Positions 1-22,361 are shown, numbered from the stretch's first letter. The stretch is DNA of 25,614 nucleotides from a bacterium (GCA_037137535.1 JBAXKC010000035.1:1-25614), one strand, 5' to 3'. The notes: a model not told the origin generated them from the letters alone. Program-made: numbers and translations.

Positions 1-53
1 TACATAGGAGTCACTAAGTTTTAAATAGGGGGATTTTTTGGGGGCATGTCAGT
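1..53 (-). mobile_element. Terminal fragment of a repeated element, probably an IS3-family IS end (reads TGACATGCCCCCAAAAAATCCCCC... outward from base 51)
   Basis: 1-53 is the exact reverse complement of 25560-25612. It begins 5'-TG followed by ACATGCCCCC, like the TGACCTGCCCC ends of IS3-family (IS407-group) elements. Its TGA is the stop of the tail fibre ORF. No transposase lies inside the window. Confidence 0.7.
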
Positions 54-1356
54 TTCCTCCTGCCCCTATTCGGACTCGTCCTGAAAGATTGGGTAATCTG
101 ATTAAAGAATGCTCGGCGTTTCCCCATTGATAAAGTTTAGTTTGAGTAATTCCAAATTCATCAATATCATTACTTGCAACGATTTTATTTTTAAAATCAA
201 CATATTCTACAGCCGAAATTAATTGTCCTTGTGCAAAAACTGCACCCATAGGAGGTGTTGATAAGCCCCAATCAAAGATAGAGCCAATCGACGGACAGTT
301 GTAAATATCTCTGCCGATGTATTGAGGCTCAGATATATCAAGACTAAAGTAATTATTATTAGTTTTTAAAACCGCTTGAGCTATGTCGTAAGCAGGTTTT
401 ACCTTTGTAACTTTACCTGCAACAGTATTTGATAAAAAGTAATACTCGCCTGATACAAGAGCATTTCCTGCTGAATCAGTGATAATATCAAAATCACCTA
501 TTACATAGGCATCAAAAGTATTATTATCAACTTTAACCGCAAAATGAGTTGCAGTTGTTGATGGAGCGGTTGCAATTGCTTTTTTCCAAAAATTAGAATC
601 GCAATAAATAAAATCTTTATCAAAACCATGATTATTTTGAATTATTCGCCTTTTTTGCTTCCCTGTAATATCTTCCCAGCCTGTATTTCCAGTTGCTGTG
701 CTTTTCATATAAAGGTTTTTATTTGCTGTATCTTCATACAATTGCCCGATAATAGTTGATGTTACAACATTTTCAGGAGAACCGGAGCCTTTTAAAATTA
801 AGTTATTCCATTTATCTTTTTCAATATCGGTTACAAACCTGTGAGTTGTATCTTGTGTAATCATTGGCGCAGGATGAGTTTCAGGGTGGGTATATTTATA
901 TAATTCTATTTGTTCATTAACAAAATTTTGTGATGCCATTGAAATATTTGGGTCTATGGAAATATTAAAAACAGTAGAGTTTGAAACAACAAGATATTCT
1001 TTAATATACAGGTCAATTAAAGCTCCTGTTTGCGGATTAATTTTATCAATAAATGGATATTTTTTAACTGCAATCATAGTTCCTGTATTATCAAAAATCC
1101 CCATTTCCCTTATTTGATAGCCATAATCAGAGGCAGGAAGAAAGGATTCAAGAACTAATTTATTTTCTGAATCAATGCTTTTACTGCTGATATTTATTCT
1201 TTTAACTTCGTGAACTAAGGCTGTTTGATTAGCTGAGGGCTGATAAGAAGCATCGCCGAAAGCTATTTGAGAAATGTTTATTTGCGTGCCAAGAGCAATG
1301 GCTTGAGCTATTTTAGCTTGCCCTGCTGTTGTTAAAATTAAAGTATAATCAGACAT
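49..1356 (-). pseudogene. Tail fibre protein (P2 gpH/DUF3751-like N-terminus), C-terminally truncated by the repeat
   Basis: N-terminus has LTTAGQAKIA...IREMGIFD, typical of baseplate-anchoring fibre domains. It ends in a tail-collar-like motif (PSIGSIFDW...RLPNLSGRVRIGAG) immediately before a stop supplied by the repeat. Probable start is ATG 1356 (GGAG upstream, overlapping the gpI end) rather than 1404. Confidence 0.8.
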
Positions 1357-1876
1357 AAATGGGTTCTCCACTGATACATAAGGCGATAATACTGCATCCG
1401 CCAATTATTGGTGTGTTAGTTATTACAGGTAAATCAAGTTCTAAGTTTTCAAGAACGGATCTTACATTTTTATACTCATCTACATAATTTGAAATTTTTT
1501 CGCTTAAATTTTCTTGATATGTTTGGCTAAGGGAGGTTAGTTTTAATTTAAAATGAAAAGCTCTTCCTCCGTATTCAAACCATTCTTTAAGTTCTACGTT
1601 AAAGCCGAGTGATTCAAGAGCAGTTATAACGCTCTTTTTAGTGCCTTTGTATTTATGATTTTTTATGGCATTTTTAATAAGATTTCTTTTTTCATAATCG
1701 GTTGTAACCATATTCCACCCTTCATTTCCTAAGATATGAAACTGGTCGGCAAGATGGATAAGAGCTGATTGTTCTGTGTTATCAACTAAATAAACAAGCA
1801 AGGGAGTTAAATCAATTGAGCCTATTTTGTCTATTAGTGCCATTATTGGGGAATTATTAATTGGGGAATCAAACAT
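1349..1876 (-). CDS. Phage tail/baseplate protein I (P2 gpI-like)
   Basis: HKYKGT...ALE, EWFEYGG and KNVRS motifs; lies between baseplate J and the fibre. Confidence 0.85.
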   Translation of the reverse strand: MFDSPINNSPIMALIDKIGSIDLTPLLVYLVDNTEQSALIHLADQFHILGNEGWNMVTTDYEKRNLIKNAIKNHKYKGTKKSVITALESLGFNVELKEWFEYGGRAFHFKLKLTSLSQTYQENLSEKISNYVDEYKNVRSVLENLELDLPVITNTPIIGGCSIIALCISGEPIYV

Positions 1877-3104
1877 TTATCACCACCGATGTGCAGTTTG
1901 CCCATTCATAAGGAGCCAATGCTTTATAGCTTGGGGAAATAAGATTTGCGTTATACACTCCGTTTACGGATAAAATTAGAGAAGAGATTTTAGCAGGCAC
2001 AATATCCTGAGCAAGTTTTGATTTTAGCGTTTGGACATAATTATTTAGTATTGAATTAATTTCAGCTTTTACAATAATAGAATCAGCCCAGGAAAAGAGC
2101 GTTACTTCAGCGTTTATACCGTAACTAACTTCTTGTGGAGATTTAATTATTACGTTATCGGTTAGCGGTCTTTTTGTTTCATCATTTAGTGCTGATTTAA
2201 CCATATCGAGAATTGCAGGAGTCGGATTTCTTGCAAGCGGATAAATCTCAACTGTCCCGGCTGGGGGAATAGTTACTTCGATATTTGAAACATTTTCACT
2301 AAAGGCAAGGGTTGCTTTTCCGTTTATGTAATCAATAGAGCCTGATGATATTTTTGCTCCGGTGAAAGTGTTGTTTTTATCTGCGGTGACTGAGTAACTA
2401 ACGCCATTTACTTTATAGCTTACAGTTGCAGGTAATTGCGGTGAAATAACGGCAACATCAATGATATCTTGATGAGCTGATTTTGTTAAAAACTCATAAG
2501 CTCCTTTACTTCCAGCGTTTGAATATTTTTCGGGAGCTTGTTTTATTCTTAATCTGTAAGTATCGTCGTCTTCTTCATCAGCCCCACCTGCTGTTATAAC
2601 TGTATTTTCAAGCTTTACTCCATCAGTTTCTGAGTTTAATGACAGATAACCATTTCCGATTATTCCTGCTTCTAAACATTCTGCAGATACTTCATCCGAA
2701 AACAAAGAGCCTGATTTAATTACAAGATTTTCAAGTAAACTAAATCCTGTTTTGCCGTCTATTACTGTACCAGCAGGTATTTCAATATCATAATCTTTAG
2801 TTTCAGTTATTGAAGCTTTAATTTTTGTTTTGGCTTTTTGGGCTTTAAGCCTTTCTACTCCAACGAGTTCACCCAAATAATCAAGCATAGGAAATGTAGC
2901 AAAATTAACAAGATTTTGTTTAGCTGCTTCTTGAATACCGATGCGGAGCAGGTTTTCTCTGTAAACTCCTACGTCAATAATAATTCGCTCTACTTGAGCA
3001 GGGTAAAGAGTTTTCCCTGTTTTTTCTTCGTAAAGAGCAATCCACTCTTGAGTAATTTTGTTTGCATCTCTGTCTATAAAGTTTGGTTCAGGCAGGTTAT
3101 TCAT
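1869..3104 (-). CDS. Baseplate wedge protein J (P2 gpJ / Mu gp47-like)
   Basis: LDYLG...GVER, GGADEEDDDTYRLRI, SNAGSKGAYEF and RPLTDNV motifs; synteny. Confidence 0.9.
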   Translation of the reverse strand: MNNLPEPNFIDRDANKITQEWIALYEEKTGKTLYPAQVERIIIDVGVYRENLLRIGIQEAAKQNLVNFATFPMLDYLGELVGVERLKAQKAKTKIKASITETKDYDIEIPAGTVIDGKTGFSLLENLVIKSGSLFSDEVSAECLEAGIIGNGYLSLNSETDGVKLENTVITAGGADEEDDDTYRLRIKQAPEKYSNAGSKGAYEFLTKSAHQDIIDVAVISPQLPATVSYKVNGVSYSVTADKNNTFTGAKISSGSIDYINGKATLAFSENVSNIEVTIPPAGTVEIYPLARNPTPAILDMVKSALNDETKRPLTDNVIIKSPQEVSYGINAEVTLFSWADSIIVKAEINSILNNYVQTLKSKLAQDIVPAKISSLILSVNGVYNANLISPSYKALAPYEWANCTSVVINV

Positions 3105-3460
3105 AAAATCAGCTCCAATTTCCCTGAAATATCTGTATTTTTGATTTTTCTTCCGATGTTAATTTTTACCTGTGAATTAATAATTTCTGCTGTAACAGAA
3201 GTTATTTCTACTCTTGGCTCCCATAATGCAATTGAATCAATAACTTCTCTGATGATATTAGGAACTGCTTCATTAACCGGAGAGTCTATATATTGCCAAA
3301 TATAAGAGCCAAATTCGGGGCGATGTGGGACTGAGCCTTTTTTAGTTGAGAGAATTATTAATATGCATTGGTCAATATCGTCTATTCCTTCAACTACAGA
3401 GGCTGTTTCATTGAGTTTTAACTGCCAATCGACAGATTTTATTTCATTTATGGTAGTCAT
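3101..3460 (-). CDS. Baseplate protein W / gp25 family
   Basis: ILSTKKGSVPHRPEFGS and WEPRVEI are hallmark GPW_gp25 motifs. Confidence 0.9.
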   Translation of the reverse strand: MTTINEIKSVDWQLKLNETASVVEGIDDIDQCILIILSTKKGSVPHRPEFGSYIWQYIDSPVNEAVPNIIREVIDSIALWEPRVEITSVTAEIINSQVKINIGRKIKNTDISGKLELIL

Positions 3461-4005
3461 TATTCCATAGCCTGATTAGGTTTTAAGGTTACTGAATTAG
3501 TTTCATTATGAGTATGCTTGTTAAACGTCCCTCTAATTTGTTGCATACTTCCTGTGTGGTCGATTATTTCGCCTTCAGATAAAACGCCTGCGGAGTTAAA
3601 AAACGTTCCTGTGTGGTTAATAATTCCTTGTATATTAATATTTGGACAAATGATGTTCAAGACGTGTTCAAGCCTGTCATACTCAAGTTCTGTAGAGTCA
3701 TTAAATTTTATTTTAAATTTATCTTTAGAAATAACGGGGCAGGTGTCTTGCTCTGAGTAAATAGCACCGAGTATTACGCCGTCTTCCAAGTTCTCATCCA
3801 TAAGGCAGGCAACGTGTTCGCCGATATCAGGTAGAAAATAGAATTTATCTTTGTAGGTTTTAGCTTGCAAAACAGGAAGCCAAAAGGATGGAATTCCGTC
3901 TGCATCTTGAAATTTAACAATTGCCGCCGCTTTTTTTTCATCAATTTCAGTTACTATGCCAAACTTGAGTTGGCTAGCCGGCAGTTTAGAGCCATTTTTT
4001 AACAT
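3460..4005 (-). CDS. Baseplate central spike V (P2 gpV / Mu gp45-like)
   Basis: OB-fold-like start (GIVTEID, WLPV, PDIGEHV, GVILGAIYS) and C-terminal HTH metal-binding HxH tip motif. Confidence 0.9.
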   Translation of the reverse strand: MLKNGSKLPASQLKFGIVTEIDEKKAAAIVKFQDADGIPSFWLPVLQAKTYKDKFYFLPDIGEHVACLMDENLEDGVILGAIYSEQDTCPVISKDKFKIKFNDSTELEYDRLEHVLNIICPNINIQGIINHTGTFFNSAGVLSEGEIIDHTGSMQQIRGTFNKHTHNETNSVTLKPNQAME

Positions 4006-4955
4006 TTTTCTATCTCCAATTCCGTTTTGTATCCTGACATCCTGTCTATTGCGTGTTTAGAGCTTTTTATGTGATATTTTCCGCTCAGATGATAAAGTCC
4101 TTTGAGTTCAATGTTTAAGCCTGCAACAAGGTATGGAGTTCCTATAATTGTGATTGTTCCTTCAACGGGAGCATTTTTATTCATAGCTGCCTGAGCTTTA
4201 AGCTTTGCCTGTTGTGAGTTTTCACATCTTGAATTTATTTTAATAGCGTCAGCTTTTACGCTGTTGCCTTTAACCGTAGAAGATACAATCTTTTTGCGTT
4301 TAGGGTCGTGGTAAACGACTTCGCAGGCTGAGTATTGCGATTTATCTTTTATTGAGTAGGATATTAAATCCTGTTTATTAATAATTACTGTTGAAATGGC
4401 ACTTTTAAGTTTGGCTGTTTCATAGAAAGTAAGTTTATTATCAGAGATTTTAAAAATATATCCGTATTCTTCAGCTAAGTTTTTAAGAAAATCCAGATCA
4501 CGTTTTTTATGCTGAGTAATTCTCTCTATTTTTATATCCTGAATACTGCCGACAAGCGTTAGTTTGTGTTTATCGGCTATTTCTTGGGCTATTTGTTTTA
4601 GCGTTTTATTAGAGTAAGCTGCGGAATTTGTTTGCCTAAGAGCTTTTTTAATATTAGCTGCAAGAGCTTTTATGGTTATTGTGTCAGGTGGGGCGTGGAA
4701 TTCCAATTCATCAATTTCAAAACTTCCGCAGTTTAAAAGCTTTTCACCTATATATCCTATATTAAGCTTTAGCGTATCCCCTTTACTTGGATACCATTGA
4801 CTTTTCCAGAGATTATCTTTATCTTCGACTTGAATTTCTATTTCATCACTTTGCCCATGTTCAAAGTCGGTATAAGAAACTGAAATGATATTTGGCGAAA
4901 TATTGGCGGTGATGTCCTTGTTTTCATATTCAATTTTAAAAATCGGTGTCAGCAT
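3999..4955 (-). CDS. Baseplate hub / late control protein D (P2 gpD-like)
   Basis: DFEHGQSDEIEI, GSFEIDELE, TQHKKRDLDFL and GKYHIKSSKH motifs; synteny. Confidence 0.85.
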   Translation of the reverse strand: MLTPIFKIEYENKDITANISPNIISVSYTDFEHGQSDEIEIQVEDKDNLWKSQWYPSKGDTLKLNIGYIGEKLLNCGSFEIDELEFHAPPDTITIKALAANIKKALRQTNSAAYSNKTLKQIAQEIADKHKLTLVGSIQDIKIERITQHKKRDLDFLKNLAEEYGYIFKISDNKLTFYETAKLKSAISTVIINKQDLISYSIKDKSQYSACEVVYHDPKRKKIVSSTVKGNSVKADAIKINSRCENSQQAKLKAQAAMNKNAPVEGTITIIGTPYLVAGLNIELKGLYHLSGKYHIKSSKHAIDRMSGYKTELEIEKC

Positions 4956-5167
4956 TAATTTCTCCAGGGCGGCAAAATAAACTCTATTTCTTCTTTATCT
5001 TCTAAAATAGGGATTTGAAGATTTATTCCTGCAGGTAGCGTTGGTGCTATTGAAATATCGGGATTTGCTTTAATAATTGGCTCATAGAGAGTTGCATCGG
5101 CGTAGAACTCGTAGGCTATTAAATCCCAGCGGTCACCGTCTTTAGTGATGTATTCATAAAATTCCAT
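4955..5167 (-). CDS. Tail protein X (P2 gpX, LysM-like)
   Basis: YITKDGDRWDLIAYEFY...IIKANP and C-terminal LPPW. Confidence 0.9.
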   Translation of the reverse strand: MEFYEYITKDGDRWDLIAYEFYADATLYEPIIKANPDISIAPTLPAGINLQIPILEDKEEIEFILPPWRN

Positions 5168-5643
5168 TATTGCCTCACTATTTGTTTTGGGGTTTTAGCG
5201 GCTTTATTACTACTTTTAACTGCTTGTTTTTTCTTAACGGTTTGTTTTTTTGTTTTCTTTTTTATTTGTAAATTATTCCATTCTTTCAGCCTGACTTGAG
5301 TTTCGATTGAAATTAAATTGCCAAGATTGTCCGATTGTTGAGTTGTTGAAGAGAGTTCAATAATTACAAATTTACCGATATATTTGCCGTTGCCTAATAT
5401 GAAAGGATATTCTTGGTGAGTAGAAGCTAAATCTTTGAGTTTTTTTAGTTCTGCTTCCGGGTAACAAAAAGAGGAGTGGAAATTTAATTTAATATTTATT
5501 TCATCAAGCTCATCGCCTATGAATTGGAGCTTTGGCTTAGATTCTATCGTCTGATGCTCGGCGAAGGTGTATCTTTTGCTCTCATCAAGGGCGTTAAAAT
5601 ATGTTATTAGATTAAATTGAATAGTTCCTAATTGTGCAAACAT
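5167..5643 (-). CDS. Tail tube initiator (P2 gpU-like)
   Basis: MFAQLG.IQF, FAEH, KPKLQFIG, LGNGKYIGKFVI; follows the tape measure gene. Confidence 0.85.
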   Translation of the reverse strand: MFAQLGTIQFNLITYFNALDESKRYTFAEHQTIESKPKLQFIGDELDEINIKLNFHSSFCYPEAELKKLKDLASTHQEYPFILGNGKYIGKFVIIELSSTTQQSDNLGNLISIETQVRLKEWNNLQIKKKTKKQTVKKKQAVKSSNKAAKTPKQIVRQ

Positions 5644-5655
5644 CTTTTAAATTCC

Positions 5656-8196
5656 TTAATATGCAAGTCTTGCCTGTTTTTGCTGTGAGTTTTTAATGAT
5701 TTTTTCTATTTCACCTTTATGCTGGTGTAACATTTTGGCAAAATCTTCTTTGGCTGTTGGGCTTGCATTGTTTATAGAGATATTCGGGTTGTAATGAATT
5801 GCAATACTTCCGCCATTATTATTACCGTTCATAGATATTTTTTTAGGCTTAAAGTTAAGAGCTTTATTCATCGCAGTATTTAATGGAGCTGGTTTTAGGG
5901 TTGCGGCAATAGTTTCAATGAGTTTGACCTTGTGCAAATCTTTAAGCGGACCGATTTTAGCAGGGGAATGGGGGAGATGGTCTCTGATAAGTTGAGCGTG
6001 TTTGCCGATTGCTTTTTGGGTTTGCCCTGTTTTTGAAAGCATCCCGAAAGACAGAAAATCAGCGATTTTAGCACCAAGTTGAAACATTTTTTTAATTAAA
6101 TCAGTAACTTTTAGAATTATTTGAGCAAGAACTTTGCCAAACTTTACTCCCATCTTTTCAGCTGCACCGCCTGTATCGTTTACGGGTTGAAGGAGTTTTT
6201 TGAACCATTCCCATATTGCTTTTAACGGTGTAAGAACAGGCGATAGGGCTTTAGCTAAAGAATTAAACGCTGGTTTTAGTGGAGCGAGTCCTTCTTTTAG
6301 TCCTTTAAAGACACCTTTAAAAAATCCTGTAATCGGCTTCCAGTATTTGTAAATGAGGAATGCAGCTGCTGCTATGGCTATTGCTATCCAGCCTATGGGA
6401 GAAGTCAGAAGAGTAAGCGAAAAAGCTCTGACAGCTGTTATTGCACTTTTTATTCCTGTTAAGAAATTAGATTTTAAAGCATTGCCGATATTTTTTAGTC
6501 CAGACACCGTCAGAAAATTTGTTCTAAAATTTAGCAATTGAGTTTTAGCCAGTTCCTTCATCGCTGTTGTTGATTGAATTATTGAGTTTTTGAAATTTGT
6601 AGGAAAAGCTTTGACGTTATTAACGATATAGCTTTTCATCCTGCTATCTGCCTGCTTTATATCAATCCCAAGATTAGTCCAGAGGTTTGAATACCTTCTC
6701 ATATATGGCATAGCACCGCCAAACGTCTGGTCTGGGTTTTTAAGAAATGAAGCCGTCCAATTAAATTTCATCATTTTAGCTAAATTTATTGCGTTTGAAT
6801 TTAATATTGGAGATAAAGTTCTTGCTAAACTTAGAAATTTTCCATAGCCTGCCGATAAATTAGAAAACATCAAACAAGCTCCGCCTACAACTAGGCTAAG
6901 AGTGCCGAAAACAACTAAACCGGCACTTAATGCCAATGTGGTTAAGGCTATATTCTTTGCTAAGAGGGGGTGTTTATCTACAAATTTGCCTATATTCTCT
7001 GACATTGTATTAAAATATGTCGCAAATGCTTTGAGTTCAGGGGAGATAGTGCTACCAAACTTTGCAAAAGTATTTTCAAGAGTTCCTGTTGCCGCTTCCC
7101 ACAAGTTTTTAAAAGTTGCTGTTATTTCATTTAAACGCTTTTGTAGACTTGCCTGTTTTTCTAATGTTTGCTGAGCTTTTTGGTATCCTTTGAGTCCTTG
7201 CGATGCCATTTCTGATATGGCGGTAGCTGATTCGTCGCCGAATAGTTTTTTAATTGTGTTTAATTTGTCTTGAGAATTAAGTTTATTGAGTTTTTCAACC
7301 TGTTTTATCATATTTTCAAGACCGAGGAATTTACCGTTTTTAAAAAATTCAAGATGAATACCGGTTGCTTTTAACTGTTCATTTACTTCTTTCATTTTTT
7401 TAGTTTCAAGTTTATCGTCAAGACTTGGGATATTCAGCATTATTCCTCTAAGAGAAGTTCCAAGCTGTTCGCCTTTAATCCCTGCTTGAGATAAAGCACC
7501 TGAGAGAGCCAGAACAGATTTACTTTGATTGTATCCTGATATGCCGAGCTGTTTAAATATCGGTCCTACGTATTTTAGGGTGTAGGCAAACTCTTCCGGG
7601 GCAAGACCAAAGCCGAATTTTGCTCTTTGAATTTGGTCAATAAATTTTACAAAATCTTTTTCGGCTATGCCTAGGCTTTTAGAAAATGTTGCCGTAATAT
7701 CTGCTACGCCTTCGGGTGAAACGTTTCCAAGTAGGACTCTTAGAAAAGCAGAACCTTCAAGACCGCCGTTTGCTATTGTTTTACTTGCGATACCGAGTTC
7801 TTTTAGTCTTGCTGCCATTATTGTAAAATCTCTTGTTGTACCGGGGAGTTTCATTCCCAGTTTTTCAGTTTGCACATTTATTTTTTGAAATTGCGAATCA
7901 ATGCCTGAACTTGTCATAAAAGCTACTTTCATTCTTGTTTGGGCATCTTCAAGATCAGCGAAAGCTTCAATAGGTTTTTGCATAGCTAACCCGAGAGCAA
8001 CACCGGCTACTGTCATTCCTGCACCTGCGGAGAGAAAACCCTGCCCTATATTTTTAGCAGCTTCTGATGTTTCTTTGATTTTCTTTTGCAGGCTATCAAA
8101 TTCTTCATTTGATGTATTAACGGCATCTTTAATTACTCTCGACATTTTATCAAAGGCGATGAGGGTTAAAGATACTTTCATCATTGTGTCTAGCAT
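5656..8196 (-). CDS. Tail tape measure protein
   Basis: 846 aa, Ala/Gly/Lys-rich helical sequence; TP901-type core (AGIKGEQLGTSLR, LFGDES); hydrophobic segments; C-terminal LPHSPAKIGPL. Confidence 0.92.
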   Translation of the reverse strand: MLDTMMKVSLTLIAFDKMSRVIKDAVNTSNEEFDSLQKKIKETSEAAKNIGQGFLSAGAGMTVAGVALGLAMQKPIEAFADLEDAQTRMKVAFMTSSGIDSQFQKINVQTEKLGMKLPGTTRDFTIMAARLKELGIASKTIANGGLEGSAFLRVLLGNVSPEGVADITATFSKSLGIAEKDFVKFIDQIQRAKFGFGLAPEEFAYTLKYVGPIFKQLGISGYNQSKSVLALSGALSQAGIKGEQLGTSLRGIMLNIPSLDDKLETKKMKEVNEQLKATGIHLEFFKNGKFLGLENMIKQVEKLNKLNSQDKLNTIKKLFGDESATAISEMASQGLKGYQKAQQTLEKQASLQKRLNEITATFKNLWEAATGTLENTFAKFGSTISPELKAFATYFNTMSENIGKFVDKHPLLAKNIALTTLALSAGLVVFGTLSLVVGGACLMFSNLSAGYGKFLSLARTLSPILNSNAINLAKMMKFNWTASFLKNPDQTFGGAMPYMRRYSNLWTNLGIDIKQADSRMKSYIVNNVKAFPTNFKNSIIQSTTAMKELAKTQLLNFRTNFLTVSGLKNIGNALKSNFLTGIKSAITAVRAFSLTLLTSPIGWIAIAIAAAAFLIYKYWKPITGFFKGVFKGLKEGLAPLKPAFNSLAKALSPVLTPLKAIWEWFKKLLQPVNDTGGAAEKMGVKFGKVLAQIILKVTDLIKKMFQLGAKIADFLSFGMLSKTGQTQKAIGKHAQLIRDHLPHSPAKIGPLKDLHKVKLIETIAATLKPAPLNTAMNKALNFKPKKISMNGNNNGGSIAIHYNPNISINNASPTAKEDFAKMLHQHKGEIEKIIKNSQQKQARLAY

Positions 8197-14463: not shown

Positions 14464-14464
14464 T

Positions 14465-15078: not shown

Positions 15079-15081
15079 TTG

Positions 15082-15742: not shown

Positions 15743-17088
15743 TGCAGCTTAACAAGTATTTCTTACCCTATCAACAAAGATGGCTGAACGATAACAGCAA
15801 AGTTAAAATATGGGAGAAGTCCAGAAGAATTGGTGCTACTTACGTTCAGTCCTATGAAGATGTGAGAGATTGCGTAGCTAAAAAGGTTCCTGCTGTTTGG
15901 TTTTCCTCCGCCGATGAGTCTGCTGCTAAAGAATATATTTTGTATTGTGAAAAATGGGTAAAGCTTTTTAATATTGCGGCAAAGCCTTTAGGTAATGTTG
16001 TTATTGATTCTGAAAAAGATATTAAAGCCTTTGTTATTGAATTTTCAAACGGTACAAAGATTCATGCATTATCTTCTAATCCTAAAGGTTTTAGGTCTAA
16101 AGGCGGAAAAGTAATTCTGGATGAGTTTGCACACCATTTAAGCCAGGATGAACTTTGGACAGCAGCAAGACCTTGCGTTACCTGGGGTTTCCCTTTAAGA
16201 ATTTTATCTACCCACAACGGACAAAATTGCAGGTTTTACAAATTTATTGAAGAAGTAAACAAAGGCAATTCCAAATGGAGCTTGCATACTACACCTATTC
16301 AATTAGCGGTAACAGAGGGTTTAGCCGATAAAATCTACGGTAGAGTAACTACAGATGAAGAAAAAGAAGCTTGGATTCAAGAACAGAGGGAAGATTGCTT
16401 TGACGAATATACCTGGAGGCAGGAATATTGCTGCGAAGCTATTGATGAAGCAAGCTCTTTTCTAACCTATGAGCTGATAAACTCTTGCGAAGCCGATGAT
16501 TTGTATAAAATTTTATCAGAAGTAAAAGGCGACTTATTTGTCGGAATGGACATCGGCAGAAAAAAAGACCTTTCTGTCATTTGGGTTTTAGAGCTTTTAG
16601 GAAAAGTTAAATACACCCGAATGATAAAAGAAATGGAAAAAACTCCTTTTCATATCCAGCAGGAAGTTTTAGCAAATATTTTAAAGCACAAGACTTTAAG
16701 GCGTTGCTGCATAGATGCTACAGGACTTGGAATGCAACTGGCAGAAACAGCTCAAAGACAATTCGGCAAATACAGAGTTGAGGCTATAACCTTTACCAAC
16801 AAAGTAAAAGAAGAACTTGCGTATAATCTTAGAACTAATTTTGAGGATAAAACTGTATATATCCCGGCTGAACATCAAATCAGAGAAGATTTGCATTCTG
16901 TAAGGCGAGTAACATCATCCTCCGGTAATATTCGATTTGACGTAGAAAAGTCAGAAGCATCAGGTCACGCTGACAGGTTTTGGGCTCTTGGTTTAGCACT
17001 TCACTCCGCCGAATCAAATATCGGACCAATAAATATTATTACAAGGCGAAGAAGAGAATCTTACGAAATTACAAAAAATTACCTCTAA
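15742..17088 (+). CDS. Terminase large subunit (Mu gp28-like)
   Basis: LPYQQRW, KSRRIGAT (Walker A), VILDEFA (Walker B), GMDIGRKKD, IDATGLG and HADRFWAL nuclease motifs. Confidence 0.95.
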   Translation: MQLNKYFLPYQQRWLNDNSKVKIWEKSRRIGATYVQSYEDVRDCVAKKVPAVWFSSADESAAKEYILYCEKWVKLFNIAAKPLGNVVIDSEKDIKAFVIEFSNGTKIHALSSNPKGFRSKGGKVILDEFAHHLSQDELWTAARPCVTWGFPLRILSTHNGQNCRFYKFIEEVNKGNSKWSLHTTPIQLAVTEGLADKIYGRVTTDEEKEAWIQEQREDCFDEYTWRQEYCCEAIDEASSFLTYELINSCEADDLYKILSEVKGDLFVGMDIGRKKDLSVIWVLELLGKVKYTRMIKEMEKTPFHIQQEVLANILKHKTLRRCCIDATGLGMQLAETAQRQFGKYRVEAITFTNKVKEELAYNLRTNFEDKTVYIPAEHQIREDLHSVRRVTSSSGNIRFDVEKSEASGHADRFWALGLALHSAESNIGPINIITRRRRESYEITKNYL

Positions 17089-17210
17089 GCTCTTTTAAGC
17101 ACACTATTTTAGTTTTTGCATACTAAGACAGCCCACCTTGTATAAACATCCCATAGCGAAGAATTTAAATAGAATTTAAACGGTATTTTAATACATCCAA
17201 AGGATAAATA

Positions 17211-18635
17211 ATGTCAGATAAAAATTTATCAGAAGAAATAGCCACAAGAAAACGCTCATACAATTTCTATAATATTGGAATGATGCTCCCTGATCCTGAT
17301 TCTGTTTTAAAAAAGCAGGGCAAAGATATCAGGATATATAAAGAGCTGTTATGTGACCCGCACGTTTGGGCTTGCGTTCAATCAAGAAAAGCAGGCGTTT
17401 TATCCTTAGAGTGGGAAATAAATAGAGGCAAAGATAAAACAGAACAATCACAGTTTATTGAAAACTTCTTTAAATCAATAGACCTTTATTCTGTCATATC
17501 AGAGATTTTAAACTCAACTCTGTTTGGCTTTCAGCCCCTTGAAATATTATGGCAACAATCGGGCAATATGATTTTACCTGCCGAAATAAAGGCAAAACCG
17601 CCTGAGTGGTTTTGTTTTGATGATGATAATAAATTAAAACTGCGAACTAAAGAAAATTACTACGGTGAAGATTTGCCTGACAAGAAGTTTCTTTGCCCTC
17701 AGTACAATCCGAGTTATGAAAACCCATACGGAGAGCGAACTTTATCAAGAGTATTCTGGCCTGTTTCTTTTAAAAAGGGCGGAGTAAGATTTTGGACAAT
17801 ATTTACAGAAAAATACGGAATGCCTTTTTTAGTAGGCAAACACCCGAGAGGTTCAACTGCTGAAGAATCAGGAAATTTAGCTGATATGCTTGATGCGATG
17901 GTGGTAGACGCTATTGCGGTGATACCTGATGATAGTTCTATTGAAATACTTGAAGGAGCAAAAGGCTCTTCTGCTGATGTTTTTGAAAAACTTATAGACA
18001 AAATGAATGCTGAAATATCAAAAGCAGTTCTCGGGCAGACTTTAACCACCGAACTTGGCAGCAAAGGCAGTTTCGCTGCTTCTAAAACTCATATGGATGT
18101 TAGAAAAGAGATTATAACGGGAGATAAAAAGCTTGTTGAAAAAACTTTAAATCAGCTCATTCATTGGATTTATTCGCTAAATTACAGCGAAAAAGATATT
18201 CCTCTTTTTGAAATGTATGAAGATGAAGACGTTGATTTAACCTTATCTCAAAGAGATAAAATCCTCAGTGACACAGGCGTTAAATTCACAAAAGCATATC
18301 TAATGAAGGCTTACGGGTTTGATGAAGAAGATATTGAAATATCGGGAGTTTTAACAGAACCCCAAAAAAAGACTAATTTTAAACAATTTTCTCAAGAAAA
18401 AAGTGAATTTCCTGATCAGCAGGCAATAGATAATTTTTCTTATTCTGATAAAGAACTGCAAAAACAGGCAGAGAGTATTTTAGCTCCTGTTATTAAAAAA
18501 ATTAAAGATGGTAATTCTTATGAAGAGATATATGCTCAGCTTTCAGAGCAGGGATTGAATACGGAAGAGATTGAAGCACAGCTGCAAAAAGCCCTCTTTA
18601 TATCTGAAATATGGGGGCGACTAAATTGTGAGTGA
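17211..18635 (+). CDS. Portal protein (Mu gp29/DUF935-like)
   Basis: DPHV...QSRK, NPYG, FTEKYGMP..VGK, EISKAVLGQTLTT, GSFAASKTH motifs. Confidence 0.93.
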   Translation: MSDKNLSEEIATRKRSYNFYNIGMMLPDPDSVLKKQGKDIRIYKELLCDPHVWACVQSRKAGVLSLEWEINRGKDKTEQSQFIENFFKSIDLYSVISEILNSTLFGFQPLEILWQQSGNMILPAEIKAKPPEWFCFDDDNKLKLRTKENYYGEDLPDKKFLCPQYNPSYENPYGERTLSRVFWPVSFKKGGVRFWTIFTEKYGMPFLVGKHPRGSTAEESGNLADMLDAMVVDAIAVIPDDSSIEILEGAKGSSADVFEKLIDKMNAEISKAVLGQTLTTELGSKGSFAASKTHMDVRKEIITGDKKLVEKTLNQLIHWIYSLNYSEKDIPLFEMYEDEDVDLTLSQRDKILSDTGVKFTKAYLMKAYGFDEEDIEISGVLTEPQKKTNFKQFSQEKSEFPDQQAIDNFSYSDKELQKQAESILAPVIKKIKDGNSYEEIYAQLSEQGLNTEEIEAQLQKALFISEIWGRLNCE

Positions 18636-19554
18636 AAAGATTATGAATAAAGTTTTATGCGGAGACAGTTTAAATGTTTTAAAAACTCTGCCTTCTCAAA
18701 GTGTTGATTGCACAGTTACATCTCCGCCATATTGGGCTCTTAGAGATTATGGAACAAATCCTGTTGTTTGGGACGGAAAAGAAGATTGCAGTCATTTATG
18801 GGATAAAAAGAATTTTTGTACTCTCTGTGGAGCCTGGAAAGGTGAATTAGGACTTGAAAAAGACTTTAATCTGTATATTAAGCACCTTTGCGATGTTTTT
18901 GAAGAAGTAAAAAGGGTTCTTAAAGATACAGGAACTCTATGGGTAAACATAGGAGATACTTATTCTTCAAAAAAGCTTCTGTTATTGCCTTTTAGATTTG
19001 CAATAGAAATGGTAAGCAGAGGTTGGACTGTTAGAAACGTAATAATATGGCAAAAACCCAATTGCACCCCGACAAGTGCTAAAGACAGGTTTACCGTAGA
19101 TTTTGAATACTTCTTTTTCTTCACTAAAACAAAAGATTACTATTTTGAACAACAAATCGAGCCGTTTAAAGAGTCCACCATTAAAAGATGTAAAGGCGGC
19201 TGTAATGAGAATAAAGGCTCTTTTTATAAAGGATTAAGTAAAGAAAACTTTGAAAAAATACAGCAGAAAATATTAAGCGGTAAATTAAAAGGCAAAAATA
19301 AAAGAGCAGTATGGAATATTGCTACATCAAACTTTGGCGGTGCTCATTTTGCAGTTTATCCTCCAAAACTTATTGAAACGCCAATATCGGCAGGTTGCCC
19401 CGAAGGTGGAATAGTCCTTGACCCTTTTATGGGAAGCGGAACAACTGGAGTAGTCGCTAAAAGCCTAAACAGAAACTGGCTTGGTATTGAGCTTAATCAG
19501 GAATTTGCAAATATGGCTGAGGATAGAATAAATGGACTTAAAATATCTCATTAA
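18628..19554 (+). CDS. Orphan amino-methyltransferase, beta class (N4-C/N6-A)
   Basis: N-terminal TSPPY catalytic motif, C-terminal VLDPFMGSGTT SAM-binding motif, HFAVYP. Confidence 0.92.
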   Translation: MSEKIMNKVLCGDSLNVLKTLPSQSVDCTVTSPPYWALRDYGTNPVVWDGKEDCSHLWDKKNFCTLCGAWKGELGLEKDFNLYIKHLCDVFEEVKRVLKDTGTLWVNIGDTYSSKKLLLLPFRFAIEMVSRGWTVRNVIIWQKPNCTPTSAKDRFTVDFEYFFFFTKTKDYYFEQQIEPFKESTIKRCKGGCNENKGSFYKGLSKENFEKIQQKILSGKLKGKNKRAVWNIATSNFGGAHFAVYPPKLIETPISAGCPEGGIVLDPFMGSGTTGVVAKSLNRNWLGIELNQEFANMAEDRINGLKISH

Positions 19555-20335
19555 CTTACCGCCCGAAAAAGCAATAAAATTTCTTAAAAACAAAGGTTAT
19601 GAATTTTCTTGGGACTGGGAAGATACTTGGCAATCGGCTCATCAGAAGGCTTTTACAGTAGCGAAAGTTATGAAACAAGACATCCTATCTGATATCAGAG
19701 AAGCAGTAGAATCTGCAATGGAAAATGGTTTAACACTTGAACAGTTTAAAAAAGAGCTTGAACCAAAGCTAAAAGACAAAGGCTGGTGGGGCATTGTTTC
19801 AGGAAAACCCGAAGACGTTAGAGCAGAGCTTTTAAAAAGAAATCTTATTCAAAAAGCTGATTTAATCCCAGGCGGAGATGAAGTTATAACAGTTCAGCTT
19901 GGCTCTCCTTGGAGATTAAAGACAATTTACAGAACTAATATTCAAACCTCATATATGGCAGGGCGGTATAAAGAACAAATAGAAAATGTTGAAAACAGAC
20001 CCTACTGGCAATATGTGGCGGTTATGGATAAAAAAACAAGACCTGCTCATTCAATGTTAAACGGAAGAATATTTAGATTTGATGACCCTTTCTGGGATAG
20101 TTTTTACCCACCAAACGGCTGGGGGTGTAGGTGCAGAGTCAGGGCATTATCTGAAGATAATGTAAAAGAACGTAAATTAGGTGTTGATAGTTCACAATTA
20201 TCAGAGGAATTAAGATTAGTTTCAAAGAAAACAGGAGAATTAAGACCTGTAGCCGTTTACACAGACCCGTTAACAGAACACAAAATATCCCCTGATGTCG
20301 GGTGGAGCTATAACCCGGGTAAAGAGAATAAATAA
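19532..20335 (+). CDS. Head morphogenesis protein MuF (Mu gp30 / SPP1 gp7 family), short form
   Basis: AFTVAKV, RLKTIYRTN, YWQYVAVMDKKTRPAH, PPNGWGCRC, W.YNPG motifs; no C-terminal toxin extension. Confidence 0.92.
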   Translation: MDLKYLINLPPEKAIKFLKNKGYEFSWDWEDTWQSAHQKAFTVAKVMKQDILSDIREAVESAMENGLTLEQFKKELEPKLKDKGWWGIVSGKPEDVRAELLKRNLIQKADLIPGGDEVITVQLGSPWRLKTIYRTNIQTSYMAGRYKEQIENVENRPYWQYVAVMDKKTRPAHSMLNGRIFRFDDPFWDSFYPPNGWGCRCRVRALSEDNVKERKLGVDSSQLSEELRLVSKKTGELRPVAVYTDPLTEHKISPDVGWSYNPGKENK

Positions 20336-20351
20336 TATAGGAGAGAAATAT

Positions 20352-21167
20352 ATGGCAGTTGATAAAAAATCGTTATTAAATTGGGTCGGAGGAAAAAGAC
20401 TTTTAAGAAAAACCATAGAACCGTTAATCCCTACTGATATCCTTTCATATATAGAGCCTTTCGGCGGCGGTGCGTGGATTTTGTTCTATAAAGAGAAATG
20501 GGCGGATTTAGAAATCTATAATGACCTTGACGGGAGGCTTGTAAACTTATTTAGAATTGTAAAATATCATCCTGAAGCGTTAAAGGAGGAATTAAGATAT
20601 CTTTTAGGCTCTCGAGAAATGTTTATGCAGTTTTTAAAGATGGAACCTATAACCGATATTCAAAAAGCAGTAAAATTCTTCTTCCTTATAACCAGATCTT
20701 TCGGAGGCAGAGGCGAGAGTTTCGGTACTGTTAAAAAATCAGCCGGCGGAGCTTGTAAAAGCCATGCCAATACGCTTTTAAAAATTGATGCGATTTATAA
20801 AAGGCTTGATAAGGTTATGGTTGAAAACAGAGATTTTGAAAAGTTAATAACGCAGTATGACCACGAGGGAGCGTTCTTTTACTGCGACCCTCCATATACT
20901 TTCGGCTGCGGATATGAAACAACGTCAACCAAAGACTTTGACCACGAAAGACTCAGAGATTTATTGAAAAACATCAAAGGCAGATTCTTGCTTTCTTATG
21001 ACGATTCAGAAAAAGTCAGAGAACTTTATGCAGGGTATGAGATGATTGCAGTAGAAAGACAAAATGGCATAAACAATAAAAGTCCTAAGAACAAAATGTT
21101 CAAAGAACTTATTATTGCAAATTATCCGATTGTGGAGATTTTTAACGGTGATAGAAATAAAGGTTGA
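20352..21167 (+). CDS. Orphan Dam-like N6-adenine methyltransferase (D12 class, alpha)
   Basis: WVGGK, YIEPFGGGA, YNDLD and YCDPPY motifs; start ATG 20352 after AGGAG. Confidence 0.92.
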   Translation: MAVDKKSLLNWVGGKRLLRKTIEPLIPTDILSYIEPFGGGAWILFYKEKWADLEIYNDLDGRLVNLFRIVKYHPEALKEELRYLLGSREMFMQFLKMEPITDIQKAVKFFFLITRSFGGRGESFGTVKKSAGGACKSHANTLLKIDAIYKRLDKVMVENRDFEKLITQYDHEGAFFYCDPPYTFGCGYETTSTKDFDHERLRDLLKNIKGRFLLSYDDSEKVRELYAGYEMIAVERQNGINNKSPKNKMFKELIIANYPIVEIFNGDRNKG

Positions 21168-21582
21168 GGATAAGGAACTGCAAAAACTTTTAAATAAGCT
21201 GGCGGAAAAGTCTCAAAATCTCCGCCCGCTTATGAAAAATATTGCAGGAATTATGCAGGATTCTGTTGAAGAAAACTTTGAAAAAGAGGGACAAAAATGG
21301 ACACCTCTCTCTGAATCTACAATCAAACAGCGAAAGAAAAAAGGCTATTGGCCCGGCAGGATTTTACAAAGACGAGGTGAGCTTGCTGCTTCTATTACAA
21401 GTAAATATGACGAAAATTCTGCCGTAGTCGGTACGAATAAAGTTTATGCGGCTATTCATCAATTCGGTGGTGATGCAGGCAGGGGCAAGAAGGTTAAGAT
21501 TCTTGCTAGACCTTACTTAAAGCTGGGAGAAAAGGAAAGTGTCGAGATTATAAAGGGGATTCAAAATTATCTTCAGGACTAA
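21148..21582 (+). CDS. Virion morphogenesis protein (Mu gpG / P2 gpS-like)
   Basis: WTPLS..T, IL...G.L..SI, VGTNKVYAAIHQFGG and ARPYL motifs; probable GTG start at 21148. Confidence 0.9.
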   Translation: MIEIKVEDKELQKLLNKLAEKSQNLRPLMKNIAGIMQDSVEENFEKEGQKWTPLSESTIKQRKKKGYWPGRILQRRGELAASITSKYDENSAVVGTNKVYAAIHQFGGDAGRGKKVKILARPYLKLGEKESVEIIKGIQNYLQD

Positions 21583-21701
21583 TTTTCCTAATTTATAGAA
21601 TTTTTTTGTATTAAAATAATAGAGTAATTAACTTGCTACACTTTTCTTTAGCATTTACAAAGACAATATTTCAGCTATTCACATATTAGGTGTTTTAAAA
21701 A

Positions 21702-22361
21702 ATGTTAGAAAAAAAAGAATTTCATTTTGTTGAAAATCCTTTTGCTCTCGAAAAGAGCGAAAATGCAGAACTCATTGAGGAATTAAAGAATTCACTAAAA
21801 GAAAACATAATACACCATAAATATGTAGTGGACATTTATACAGGGATGCCTGAACATAATAATTATCTAAATAAAAAATATAAAATTAATAAAGAAAATG
21901 CTGAAAACGCCCTTAAAAATCAAGATTATTTCCGTTACATTGATTCACATGAGCTACCCTATAAATTAGCCCCTTTGTGTGCAGTTTTTGAAAAAGCAGA
22001 CGTAGACGATAAAATAAAAGCTGAATTATTAACATACACTTGGGTTTTAGTTGAAAATCCAAGCGTAAATATGAAACATTGGATAAAACTTTTTAAATAT
22101 TTTGCAGAAAAAAATGAATTGCTTATGACAGAGCAAGAACTTGAATTTTTCAATAACCTTTCTGAAGAAATAACTGTTTATCGTGGTGCTGATTCTATTG
22201 AAGGGATTAGCTGGACATTATGCAAAGAAAAAGCCGAATGGTTTGCTAAAAGATATAATAAAAATGGTAAGATTTTTGCAAAAACAGTTAAAAAAAATGA
22301 CTGTTTATGTTATCTAAATGACAGAAAAGAAGAAGAAATAATTTATTTTGATAAAGTTTAG
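21702..22361 (+). CDS. Hypothetical protein with putative C-terminal ADP-ribosyltransferase-like (R-S-E) domain
   Basis: ITVYRG...GISWTL...AEWFA...RKEEEII; AT-rich, with its own intergenic region. Confidence 0.5.
   Translation: MLEKKEFHFVENPFALEKSENAELIEELKNSLKENIIHHKYVVDIYTGMPEHNNYLNKKYKINKENAENALKNQDYFRYIDSHELPYKLAPLCAVFEKADVDDKIKAELLTYTWVLVENPSVNMKHWIKLFKYFAEKNELLMTEQELEFFNNLSEEITVYRGADSIEGISWTLCKEKAEWFAKRYNKNGKIFAKTVKKNDCLCYLNDRKEEEIIYFDKV

Follow-up and report, generated by a model that had tools for sequence, protein, structure and literature searches.

Gene content of the window

The stretch of DNA analysed here (the window, positions 1-25614, 25,614 nucleotides) is one whole contig, C35, of genome G000. 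From 49 to 21582 it encodes a complete head, neck and contractile-tail gene set of the Mu/BcepMu type in two divergent blocks, as described in an earlier note on this DNA; they run from a 176-bp region on the minus strand (49-14463) and on the plus strand (14743-21582). All packaging, capsid, neck and contractile-tail genes named there were recovered with strong family matches, and family profiles likewise gave no transposase, integrase or prophage repressor among the window genes, the sole HTH protein being the HigB/HigA-like antidote. The features are as follows.

1-51: IS terminal repeat (multicopy IS) at the contig end; breaks the fibre-coding DNA
49-1404, minus: tail fibre, N-terminal part, 451 aa (PF12571, E 4.5e-32; phrog_1780, E 7e-42)
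1349-1876, minus: gpI, P2-type (Pfam Tail_P2_I)
1869-3104, minus: gpJ, P2-type (Pfam Baseplate_J)
3101-3460, minus: gpW, P2-type (Pfam GPW_gp25)
3460-4005, minus: gpV, P2-type (Pfam Phage_base_V)
3999-4955, minus: gpD, P2-type (Pfam Phage_GPD)
4955-5167, minus: gpX, P2-type (Pfam Phage_tail_X)
5167-5643, minus: gpU, P2-type (Pfam Phage_P2_GpU)
5656-8196, minus: tape measure protein
8303-8563, minus: tail assembly chaperone
8613-8936, plus: HigB-like toxin
8929-9261, plus: HTH antidote
9265-9786, minus: tail tube
9783-9983, minus: small ORF between tube and sheath
9980-11206, minus: tail sheath
11210-11626, minus: Gp37 (Mu)
11616-12047, minus: Mu Gp36
12047-12382, minus: cement protein
12363-12611, minus: 82-aa ORF
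12611-13525, minus: major capsid protein
13534-14463, minus: Mu I-type protease/scaffold
14465-14644, minus: 59-aa ORF (from the ORF listing), opens the leftward late block
14645-14820: divergent late control region, 176 bp, with a palindrome at 14715-14768
14821 or 14743 to 15078, plus: first small conserved ORF
15079-15327, plus: second small conserved ORF
15287-15742, plus: TerS-like DNA-binding protein
15742-17088, plus: terminase large subunit, TerL (Terminase_6N, Terminase_6C)
17211-18635, plus: Mu-type portal (PF06074, E 3e-104)
18628-19554, plus: N6/N4 DNA methylase
19532-20335, plus: Mu F
20295-21167, plus: Dam-type methylase
21115-21582, plus: Mu G virion morphogenesis protein
21702-22361, plus: accessory ORF, 219 aa, function not assigned (phrog_4776, E 9e-36)
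22585-24168, minus: TPR protein (TPR families)
24296-25567, minus: GT41-type glycosyltransferase (PF13844); listed start codon inside the IS end
25562-25614: IS terminus, second copy, inverted, at the right end of contig C35

Further profile matches were obtained by region: phrog_28 (E 1.5e-83), PF10145 and PF10109 for tape measure and chaperone; PF04985 (E 4e-53) and phrog_23 (E 2e-113) for tube and sheath; PF09646, PF07030 and PF09956 for the neck/head-completion region (11210-12611); phrog_1005 (E 9e-100), phrog_976 (E 8e-60) and PF10123 for capsid and protease; phrog_23321, phrog_23145, phrog_756 and PF10668 for the small ORFs and TerS; and PF01555, PF04233, PF02086 and PF05069 for the methylase/F/Dam/G region (18628-21582). 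The gpI-to-gpU baseplate and tail genes also matched PHROG tail families, and their order was identical in relatives. The toxin/antidote pair (phrog_3445, PF05973, PF21716, HTH_3) is an accessory insertion within the tail operon and had no counterpart between the tube and chaperone genes of two related prophages. The DNA of the 59-aa ORF was kept in two related prophages, and its product, judged by eye, looks like a small membrane protein.

The similarity to relatives breaks off either with the stop codon of G (21582) or no more than about 25 nt further on, and the 219-aa ORF that follows (21702-22361) was without a Pfam match and present in G000 only, among the 61 genomes searched. Because of this break and the restriction of the ORF to G000, the conserved phage part is best placed as ending near 21.6 kb rather than at 22361, the limit given in the earlier note, whose outline held for the phage genes up to 21582; the ORF itself may be prophage cargo or flank. 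The right arm is more AT-rich, as had been observed before: GC content falls from 0.32-0.38 to 0.26-0.30 past about 21.5 kb and is 0.26-0.30 over the TPR and glycosyltransferase genes (22585-25567), which may be either host flank or cargo.

Both ends of the contig carry an IS terminus of ~51 nt that is common to 15 contig ends in G000. A second, similar terminus was found at 14 other contig ends, among them the right end of contig C33, and both termini carry the same tip, TGAC(A/C)TGCCCCC. The stop codon of the fibre ORF (49-51) lies inside the IS end, with the reading frame open up to the IS boundary. The left side of the window, already recognised as cut off, is cut by an IS sitting in fibre-coding DNA, and the short-read assembly was broken at this IS copy. 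G000 is rich in IS copies that could have rearranged the genome.

The early module on contig C33

The right end of C33 is an IS terminus complementary to that at the ends of C35. This contig encodes an S24 repressor, a ner-like protein, MuA, MuB, GemA, Mor, HU, an M15 endolysin, a fibre-assembly protein and the C-part of a fibre, whose reading frame extends without a stop to the IS. MuA (661 aa) contains PF02914 and PF09039 (Mu I-gamma HTH), and the next gene encodes a MuB-like ATPase (291 aa; phrog_296, E 2.5e-80). Since TerL and PF02914 each gave just one match in the whole genome of G000, each prophage half is unique in it. The apparent lack of early genes results from the assembly, and the gene set of C33, together with the same order in uninterrupted relatives, bears out the proposal of a transposable phage with its early module on the far side of the fibre gene.

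We infer that the left end of C35 and the right end of C33 flank one and the same IS copy. A 4-nt target duplication, of the kind that pairs four other IS flanks, was absent between these two ends, and their fibre frames gave no in-phase join, so that an IS-mediated deletion, a rearrangement or non-adjacency is possible. The fibre region of the prophages in genome G016 consists of three ORFs rather than one, and the two fibre pieces of G000 therefore do not necessarily represent a single gene. Possibly G000 is a metagenome bin, with 2% contamination, so that the placement of C35 and C33 in one genome rests on binning. With its broken fibre, the G000 copy would presumably be unable to form infectious particles. 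In run X1, contigs over the late block had a depth of 27.5-32.8, equal to that of a single-copy flank piece, with no sign of induction.

Up to the end of G, the prophage would measure ~35 kb, with the early part and the fibre C-part on C33 and the remainder in the window. In the proposed order, host tRNA-Ser and tRNA-Arg genes would be followed by the left end (TGTAATTTATC...) and then, rightward, by genes for a TnsB-like transposase (666 aa), a TniB-like ATPase (235 aa) and an integrase-derived protein (289 aa) without the catalytic end. The S24 repressor gene (leftward) and the ner-like gene, MuA, MuB, GemA, Mor and HU (rightward) would come next, followed leftward by small ORFs, endolysin, fibre-assembly, fibre, baseplate, tape measure, tube, sheath, neck, capsid and protease, and finally, rightward, by small ORFs, TerS, TerL, portal, methylase, F, Dam and G.

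Related prophages and the divergent control region

Of 61 genomes of the order, 17 (counting G000) contain TerL relatives, and five of these have them at 2 to 4 places. G016 contains two uninterrupted prophages with the order repressor / ner, MuA, MuB, GemA, Mor / lysis, fibre ... protease / TerS, TerL, portal, F, Dam, G, and their proteins are 36-92% identical to the G000 counterparts. In relatives, MuA, MuB and repressor genes are contiguous with the late block, at many different loci. The element is a mobile transposable prophage, because intact relatives share this gene order and often occur in several copies per genome. The checks proposed earlier for a host-controlled particle, a fixed chromosomal locus and the absence of linked MuA/MuB, thus gave the opposite result. 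Of the findings that had been expected of an ordinary transposable prophage, MuA/MuB and a repressor flanking the block at variable loci were observed, whereas TG...CA ends were not, a TGT-type left end being the only one found. Relatives of ~7.7 kb also occur, in which both transposases and a TerS-like protein are kept and the virion genes are absent.

The palindrome at 14715-14768 has 27-nt arms that are 89% complementary, with zero spacer, and the control region around it (14645-14820) contains 7 promoter-like sites versus 2.0 expected. Inverted repeats were present at all seven protease/TerS junctions of relatives examined (without a shuffle control), and the control region, called symmetric in the earlier note, is palindromic in G000 and relatives alike. 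Among 11 TerL loci in all, 7 extend far enough to reach the junction, and because the protease gene lies opposite in strand to the terminase block in all 7, the divergent late layout is an evolved, conserved architecture and not an accident, as the earlier note had argued. Alignment with relatives indicates that the first plus-strand ORF probably starts at 14821. Mor may drive both divergent late operons from the palindromic region.

Left end and adjacency to tRNA genes

Of 41 informative related loci, 40 encode a further transposase/AAA+ ATPase pair, TnsB/TniB-like, upstream of MuA. In G000, the 666-aa transposase matched Mu-transpos_C (55.9 bits) and, under the cut-off of 32.6, rve (28.5 bits); the 235-aa ATPase matched AAA_22 and TniB above their cut-offs (TniB 33.1 bits, cut-off 22.4). 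By these profiles, the pair can be classed as a TnsB-type transposase with a TnsC/TniB-type ATPase. Pfam searches of the left-module ORFs of G000 and two related loci (L106, L083) gave no TnsA and no TniQ/TnsD. The third gene of the module encodes either an integrase derivative or an unnamed protein of 221-232 aa. The G000 protein aligns with positions 3-152 of the 290 of XerD and ends before the part with HxxR and Tyr; its homologues in loci L033 and L034 (176 and 185 aa) end with the N-terminal DNA-binding domain, and most relatives have the unrelated-looking 221-232-aa protein in its place.

For 28 of the 42 loci (chance expectation 0.65% per locus), the first transposase gene is preceded, within 1 kb, by the end of a tRNA or tmRNA gene on the same strand, with 15 different kinds represented, and in 7 further loci such a gene lies at 1.4-2.7 kb. 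All 36 tRNA/tmRNA genes found share the strand of the transposase gene. The left end begins 38-77 nt past the tRNA (7 loci with both positions exact), and copies about 95% identical are located behind different tRNAs. The left end begins with TGT and contains a ~22-nt site in direct repeats, with 4 direct sites per 342-bp unit; inverted copies of these sites were found in neither C35 nor C33. Neither a right end nor a target-site duplication was found, nor was an att-type direct repeat between the two flanks. Integration is not near-random as in Mu; prophage positions follow tRNA genes.

Comparison with known phages and transposons

The portal was 44% identical to that of BcepMu/phiE255 (Burkholderia, Bcepmuvirus), the best match among 50,697 phage records; at the DNA level, the window matched no phage record. 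Because this closest known portal is only 44% identical, the term new Mu-like lineage, offered in the earlier note, is fair. Shared with BcepMu are TerS, TerL, Mu portal, F, G, I protease, capsid, DUF2190/cement, Gp36 and Gp37 in head and neck; sheath, tube, chaperone, tape measure, P2 U/X/D/V/W/J/I and fibre in the tail; and Mor, GemA, HU, a transposase and an ATPase in the early part. The late genes of BcepMu all run in one direction, whereas here the TerS-to-G block is inverted relative to the protease-to-fibre block, and the BcepMu annotation lists a single transposase and a single transposition ATPase where the G000 lineage has two pairs.

In phage Mu, the repressor gene reads leftward and is followed by ner, A and B, which read rightward; the late genes are co-directional and integration is almost random. 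The G000 prophage has the same repressor, ner, A, B arrangement, and further likenesses are the MuA-type DDE transposase with Mu I-gamma HTH, the MuB-type ATPase, the ner-like gene, GemA and Mor, and the head genes portal/F/G/I/Gp36. It differs from Mu in its divergent late operons, its S24 (LexA-like) repressor, the extra transposase/ATPase pair ahead of the repressor gene and the position of the prophages behind tRNA genes.

The left module resembles Tn7-like elements, which home to fixed sites, in the succession of an rve plus Mu-transpos_C transposase, a small AAA+ ATPase and a third DNA-binding protein; in its insertion close downstream of a conserved gene and in one orientation only, the transposition genes adjoining that gene; and in several ~22-nt direct repeats in the gene-proximal end, which begins TGT. 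CAST I-B2/I-D home behind tRNA genes. According to PMC10293859, a CAST I-D homes 30-33 nt behind one, and the selector of Tn6022 is TnsF, an integrase-derived protein without catalytic centre. The G000 integrase-derived protein recalls TnsF in lacking the catalytic centre but differs in having no zinc-finger region. Further differences from Tn7-like elements are the lack of TnsA and TniQ/TnsD among the ORFs scanned, the use of many tRNAs and tmRNA instead of one gene as targets, a far end and 5-bp duplication that were not found here, and the nature of the element, a complete tailed phage also carrying MuA and MuB.

Discussion

The window very probably represents the late half, with the virion genes, of a single Mu-like transposable myovirus prophage whose structural module is of the BcepMu type. 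Gene transfer agents (GTAs) are siphovirus-like, occupy one conserved locus and are inherited vertically. The window alone, with head and tail genes and without neighbouring replication or integration genes, is reminiscent of a GTA of the RcGTA type, and the GTA-like, domesticated and helper-dependent readings raised by the earlier note were built on this lack of transposase, integrase and prophage repressor; none of the three is supported. A host-controlled particle island that is fixed in place, vertically inherited and devoid of its own transposition and regulatory genes would also suit the single-copy depth of the late block in run X1. Such an island is nonetheless extremely improbable: the tail is contractile, G000 contains the early module on a contig with the rest of the fibre region, relatives have that module contiguous with the late block, and the element has a scattered distribution (17 of 61 genomes), is multicopy in five genomes and is seated behind 15 different tRNA/tmRNA kinds.

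That C35 (late) and C33 (early) are two separate, non-adjacent defective remnants, each cut by a different IS copy, would agree with the IS flanks lacking a matching target duplication or in-phase join and with the many IS copies able to rearrange the genome. We consider it very unlikely, since each half is unique in G000, the halves are complementary exactly at the fibre region, they end in opposite termini of the same IS and together they give the order of intact relatives; even if moved apart by inversion or deletion, both would still derive from one prophage. There is slightly less to be said for the view that the tRNA adjacency goes back to a conventional tyrosine integrase using a tRNA att site and not to a transposition module. 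It could draw on the tyrosine-recombinase-like gene after the ATPase gene in G000 and on a putative integrase-like ORF after G in some relatives, read from the visible translation start. It is made very unlikely by the missing HxxR and Tyr part of the G000 protein, the short homologues in L033 and L034, the unrelated-looking protein in most relatives, the near-identical copies behind different tRNAs, the start of the element past and not within the tRNA, and the lack of an att-type repeat between the flanks.

Within the preferred reading of a Mu-like transposable prophage, we suggest tentatively, and with rather more doubt than confidence, that the lineage fused a Tn7/Tn552-like homing module with MuA/MuB. 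The module would consist of the TnsB-like transposase, the TniB/TnsC-like ATPase and the DNA-binding third protein at the left end, the last being, in G000 and two relatives, a putative TnsF-like integrase stripped of its catalytic part. It would set the prophage in one orientation about 40-75 nt behind any free tRNA/tmRNA gene, and may read a feature common to these genes, e.g., T-arm-coding DNA, while the MuA/MuB pair would perform replicative transposition during lytic growth. If this fused-transposition reading is true, the virion-less relatives of ~7.7 kb would be satellites of these phages.

Gene content of the window and its break at the fibre gene

The window is, with high probability, the late half of a Mu-like prophage whose early half was parted from it by an insertion sequence (IS) and a contig break. 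Scans with PHROGs and Pfam covered all 33 open reading frames (ORFs) that have at least 60 aa and are not nested in larger genes, and the following features were assigned, in the listed order within each block:

49–14463, − strand: fibre N-terminal part; P2-type gpI, J, W, V, D, X and U; tape measure; chaperone; tube; small ORF; sheath; Gp37; Mu Gp36; cement protein; 82-aa ORF; capsid; Mu I-type protease
8613–9261, + strand (opposite to the tail operon): HigB/HigA-like toxin/HTH antidote pair, between the tube and chaperone genes
From 14743, + strand: two small ORFs; TerS-like protein; TerL; Mu portal (E-value 3e-104)
After the portal gene to 21582, + strand: N6/N4-type DNA methyltransferase (18628–19554); Mu F; Dam-type DNA methyltransferase (20295–21167); Mu G

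The scan agrees with the full virion gene set described in the earlier note and with its statement that early genes are missing from the window, as none were among the ORFs scanned. The HigB/HigA-like pair has no counterpart at that position in two related prophages. Of the two methyltransferases within the head-gene block, the Dam type is kept in relatives (76–84% identity); the N6/N4 type has no counterpart in the copies of two related genomes, G016 and G015, where other DNA fills the gap between portal and F. Megablast of 22.4 kb of the window against phage records gave no DNA match, and the ORF at 21702–22361 was found in this genome (G000) only, among 61 genomes searched.

The G000 assembly comprises 81 contigs (2.95 Mb, 31% GC), of which the window is one complete contig (C35). 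One and the same sequence opens (51 bases) and, inverted, closes (53 bases) this contig, and it was found at 15 contig ends altogether; a second, similar terminus was found at 14 further contig ends, and the tip TGAC(A/C)TGCCCCC is common to both. The two terminus types are the two ends of one multicopy IS, whose body is absent from the assembly. G000 is a very IS-rich genome, with 117 of its 162 contig ends in repeat families (biggest groups of 36, 21, 15, and 14 ends). The fibre ORF (49–1404, − strand) runs into the IS, from which its stop codon is derived. The left side is thus indeed cut off, as had been noticed before, because an IS within fibre-coding DNA could not be crossed by the assembler. 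The translated left flank of another contig, C39, reads like the C-terminus of another transposase, interrupted by the same IS.

The early half and its relation to the window

A genome search for PF02914 (Mu A-type core) gave a single match in G000, on contig C33, and Mu-transpos_C gave two, on C33 and on a further contig, C70. The right 9 kb of C33 carry the following genes:

− strand: S24 repressor
+ strand, after the repressor: 62-aa ner-like ORF; MuA (661 aa); MuB-like ATPase (291 aa); GemA; 88-aa ORF; Mor; HU
− strand, after HU: four small ORFs; M15 endolysin; fibre-assembly gene; fibre C-terminal part

The frame of the fibre C-terminal part is open right up to an IS terminus at the contig end, and this terminus is of the type complementary to that at base 1 of the window. 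Since TerL and PF02914 occur once each in G000, each half can belong only to the other. Two unbroken copies in G016 have the gene order of C33 joined to C35, gene for gene: repressor; ner, MuA, MuB, GemA, and Mor; small ORFs, endolysin, and fibre through to capsid and protease; and then small ORFs, TerS, TerL, portal, F, Dam, and G.

These findings bear on two readings offered in the earlier note. An island without mobility genes, possibly a gene transfer agent-like particle, describes C35 taken by itself, and dissolves once C33 is considered; the gene transfer agent-like reading was rejected on account of the MuA/MuB and repressor half on C33 and the same order, unbroken, in G016. The other reading, a transposable phage with its early module past the fibre gene, is borne out by the repressor-to-fibre stretch of C33.

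The join itself is not a clean one. Four IS-flank pairs elsewhere in G000 have matching 4-nt duplications (context A-NNNN-T); the 4-nt flanks at the left of C35 and the right of C33 match neither each other nor any other IS flank. In addition, the fibre frames of C35 and C33 are out of phase at the meeting point, and the fibre region of G016 consists of three consecutive ORFs, which points to a possible loss or rearrangement of fibre DNA at the IS. In both cases the fibre region is disrupted and this copy is probably unable to make infectious particles.

Contigs of four public sequencing runs span 5615–22737 unbroken at a phage-like depth; in one of the runs (X1) the depth is 27.5–32.8, like that of a single-copy flank piece. 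Across the four runs, which exist as contigs only, no junctions at a prophage end were found, which leaves activity neither shown nor excluded. Over the TPR/GT41 region of the window (22997–25540), X1 has extra contigs with many differences and a higher summed depth (to ~218), which suggests paralogues or other strains for these genes.

Conservation of the divergent late operons

Of 61 genomes from the same order, 17 (counting G000) have TerL relatives, with full-length matches at 50–85% identity; five genomes have them at 2 to 4 places each. The protease gene lies on the opposite strand in all seven TerL loci that reach the junction (the other four of the 11 end too early). The closest among 50,697 phage records were BcepMu/phiE255 (portal 44% identity), which have the same late gene set as the window but in one direction, whereas the window lineage has two divergent blocks. 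By these comparisons the divergent layout is a conserved lineage trait and not an accident of the G000 copy; the earlier view of an evolved architecture rather than an accidental inversion is thereby upheld.

A second arrangement of the same modules, with the chaperone and tape-measure genes and not the portal gene after TerL, was seen at three of the 11 TerL loci and in G015. Another arrangement was seen on a viral contig (L120:1545–9789), where a transposase of the 666-aa type described below is directly followed by TerS, TerL, portal, F, Dam, and G, the element standing behind a tmRNA gene. The phage lineage is widespread: 80 loci with MuA were recovered, and the record titles of most of them name Gastranaerophilales or Melainabacteria.

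The 176 bp between a 59-aa ORF (14465–14644, − strand) and the probable start of the first + strand ORF (14821) contain a palindrome with 27-nt arms and seven promoter-like sites versus 2.0 expected. An inverted repeat of at least 10 nt is present in seven of seven related junctions examined (counted without a shuffle control), with arms of 20–38 nt in four of them, and outer arms of the TTTCAA...TTGAAA type recur in several. The element encodes its own Mor, which, by analogy with Mu, would act at this divergent control region.

A second transposition module

Between the left border of the prophage and the repressor gene, G000 encodes a further transposase of 666 aa (Mu-transpos_C; phrog_310, E-value 2e-93; rve match below the cut-off), followed by a 235-aa ATPase passing the TniB model and a 289-aa integrase-like protein. 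The informative set comprised those 41 of the 80 MuA loci that extend 4.5 kb or more upstream; the transposase/ATPase pair is present on the MuA strand in 40 of these, the exception being L054. The identity of this transposase tracks that of MuA (76–77% versus 82% for MuA in G016, ~50% versus ~53% elsewhere). Both transposases are full length in 14 sampled copies, with invariant acidic residues (e.g., D274, D341, and E396 in the 666-aa type) whose DDE-like spacing suggests that they form the catalytic triad. NCBIfam has no name for either transposase pair.

The 289-aa third protein of G000 stops before the HxxR and Tyr part of a recombinase. Its homologues at two other loci (L033, 176 aa; L034, 185 aa) are reduced to a winged-helix-like stretch at the N-terminus plus the N-terminal DNA-binding domain of an integrase, and most other copies have in third place a 221–232-aa protein without a name but with a similar N-terminus. 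At L034:500–7500, two modules of transposase, ATPase, and third gene stand back to back and no tRNA gene was found; this may represent a second insertion mode, beside a resident copy.

Insertion behind tRNA genes

ARAGORN was run on 44 sources, corresponding to 42 distinct loci after one duplicate and C70 were set aside; the value for L109 is a manual correction. Of the 42 loci, 36 have a tRNA or tmRNA gene on the same strand as the transposase gene, its end lying less than 1 kb upstream of the transposase gene in 28, 1.4–2.7 kb in seven, and 5.6 kb in one. One of the six loci without such a gene is on a contig that begins in an apparent tRNA 3′ half. Where both positions are exact, the element starts 38–77 nt past the tRNA. 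For G000, with 38 genes, a locus would have such a neighbour by chance in 0.65% of cases. Fifteen kinds of target are used (14 anticodons and tmRNA), and copies ~95% alike stand behind different tRNAs. These loci are related to one another, and there is some overlap with the genomes counted in the TerL survey; their kinship notwithstanding, 15 targets mean many independent insertions.

Tn7-like elements, as described in print, combine a TnsB transposase, a TnsC ATPase, and a selector, and go in a single orientation into the DNA shortly after a conserved gene; a CAST I-D homes 30–33 nt behind a tRNA-Leu gene via TnsD, and the TnsF protein used by Tn6022 has a tyrosine-recombinase domain that is inactivated (PMC10293859). 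The left module of the prophage resembles Tn7-like homing on every testable point, but no TnsA and no TniQ/TnsD were found among its scanned ORFs. It was not assigned to the Tn7 family because these proteins are missing and the far end was not found.

Ends of the prophage

The left border is sharp. The two G016 copies become alike 448 bp upstream of the 666-aa-type transposase gene, and copies in other genomes 350–450 bp upstream of it or at a ~265-bp segment; six related copies start with the identical sequence TGTAATTTA. The G000 border lies at C33:12911 (TGTAATTTATCTGG...), in a left end that is duplicated (C33:12879–13566; L005:879–1566). Here a unit of 342 bp holding four direct ~22-nt sites occurs as a tandem pair, and a degenerate third copy of the last 23 nt of the end stands ahead of the pair, at C33:12879. 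Further on, at C33:13720–14157, is a 145-aa ORF with no family assigned.

On the right side, similarity ends at the G stop codon with different genes beyond (six and six more related copies), and in the G016 pair 505 bp past this codon, within shared sequence. No inverted left end or ~22-nt site was found near G, in C35, in C33, or in the G016 copies with up to 4–6 mismatches, nor with one mismatch in the 10-nt core. Matches of 5-mers were too frequent to inform on a target duplication, and no match was seen at the smaller, ~7.7-kb relatives described below. No att-type direct repeats were found between the tRNA flank and the post-G region. Neither the right end nor a target duplication was located by these comparisons. 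The right end may lie past a variable cargo region, possibly past C35 itself, and the TPR and GT41 genes are either flank or cargo.

Further copies of the left-end sequence or site were found on C70 only (L006:1–4762). This contig carries another 666-aa-type transposase gene, cut by the contig start, and ~1.3 kb from it a TGT-type end with one + strand site (3117–3175); an inverted site at ~3072–3093 lies just ahead, as if two elements abut. The other end of C70 is an IS terminus complementary to that at the right end of the window. A join there would make the motif at 3117 an inverted right end and the element ~41 kb long. The 4-nt flanks do not match, however, and the C70 ORF entering the IS is unrelated to the TPR protein (on the C35 side the IS cuts the GT41 gene), and the join was treated as a lead only.

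Smaller relatives of ~7.7 kb

Relatives of ~7.7 kb were found at L083:5811–~13500 and at L084, L087, L081, L078, L080, and L110, with the left end TGTAATTTA. They have genes for a transposase (673 aa), an ATPase (242 aa), a protein of 221 aa, a MuA-like protein (664 aa), and a TerS-like HTH protein (137 aa), as well as four small ORFs, and are without MuB and virion genes. Copies ~95% alike stand behind different tRNA genes in different genomes. These elements may be satellites of the full phage; in one genome where a ~7.7-kb element was compared with the full phage, no ends common to the two were found. Their similarity ends near L083:13500, which is probably the edge of a variable cargo region and not the end of the element, because three copies with different tRNAs share DNA beyond it. 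No empty site for the L083 right flank was found in four other genomes. Beside the element, L083:14285–19851 encodes a defence-like trio (DEAD/Lhr-like helicase, BrxC/D-type ATPase, TerB-domain protein), which is at least partly common to the three copies and may be cargo.

Implications

The lineage is one of transposable phages, marked by the conserved divergent late operons, the Tn7-like second module, and the insertion behind tRNA genes. For scans of fragmented genomes, the window is a caution, as an “island” free of mobility genes was a prophage half severed by an IS and by assembly. The hits of a full-text literature search included no report of a Mu-like phage targeting tRNA genes or carrying two transposase pairs, and none connected Melainabacteria with Mu-like prophages. 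In this lineage, genes for Mu-type replication are joined by a second transposase/ATPase pair, which is Tn7-like, and the element stands behind many different tRNA genes. If this second pair does the homing, the lineage would be, as far as these hits go, the first transposable phage known to select a safe site. It would also naturally connect Mu with targeting of the Tn7 type, and be a case of protein-guided recognition of tRNA genes as a class.
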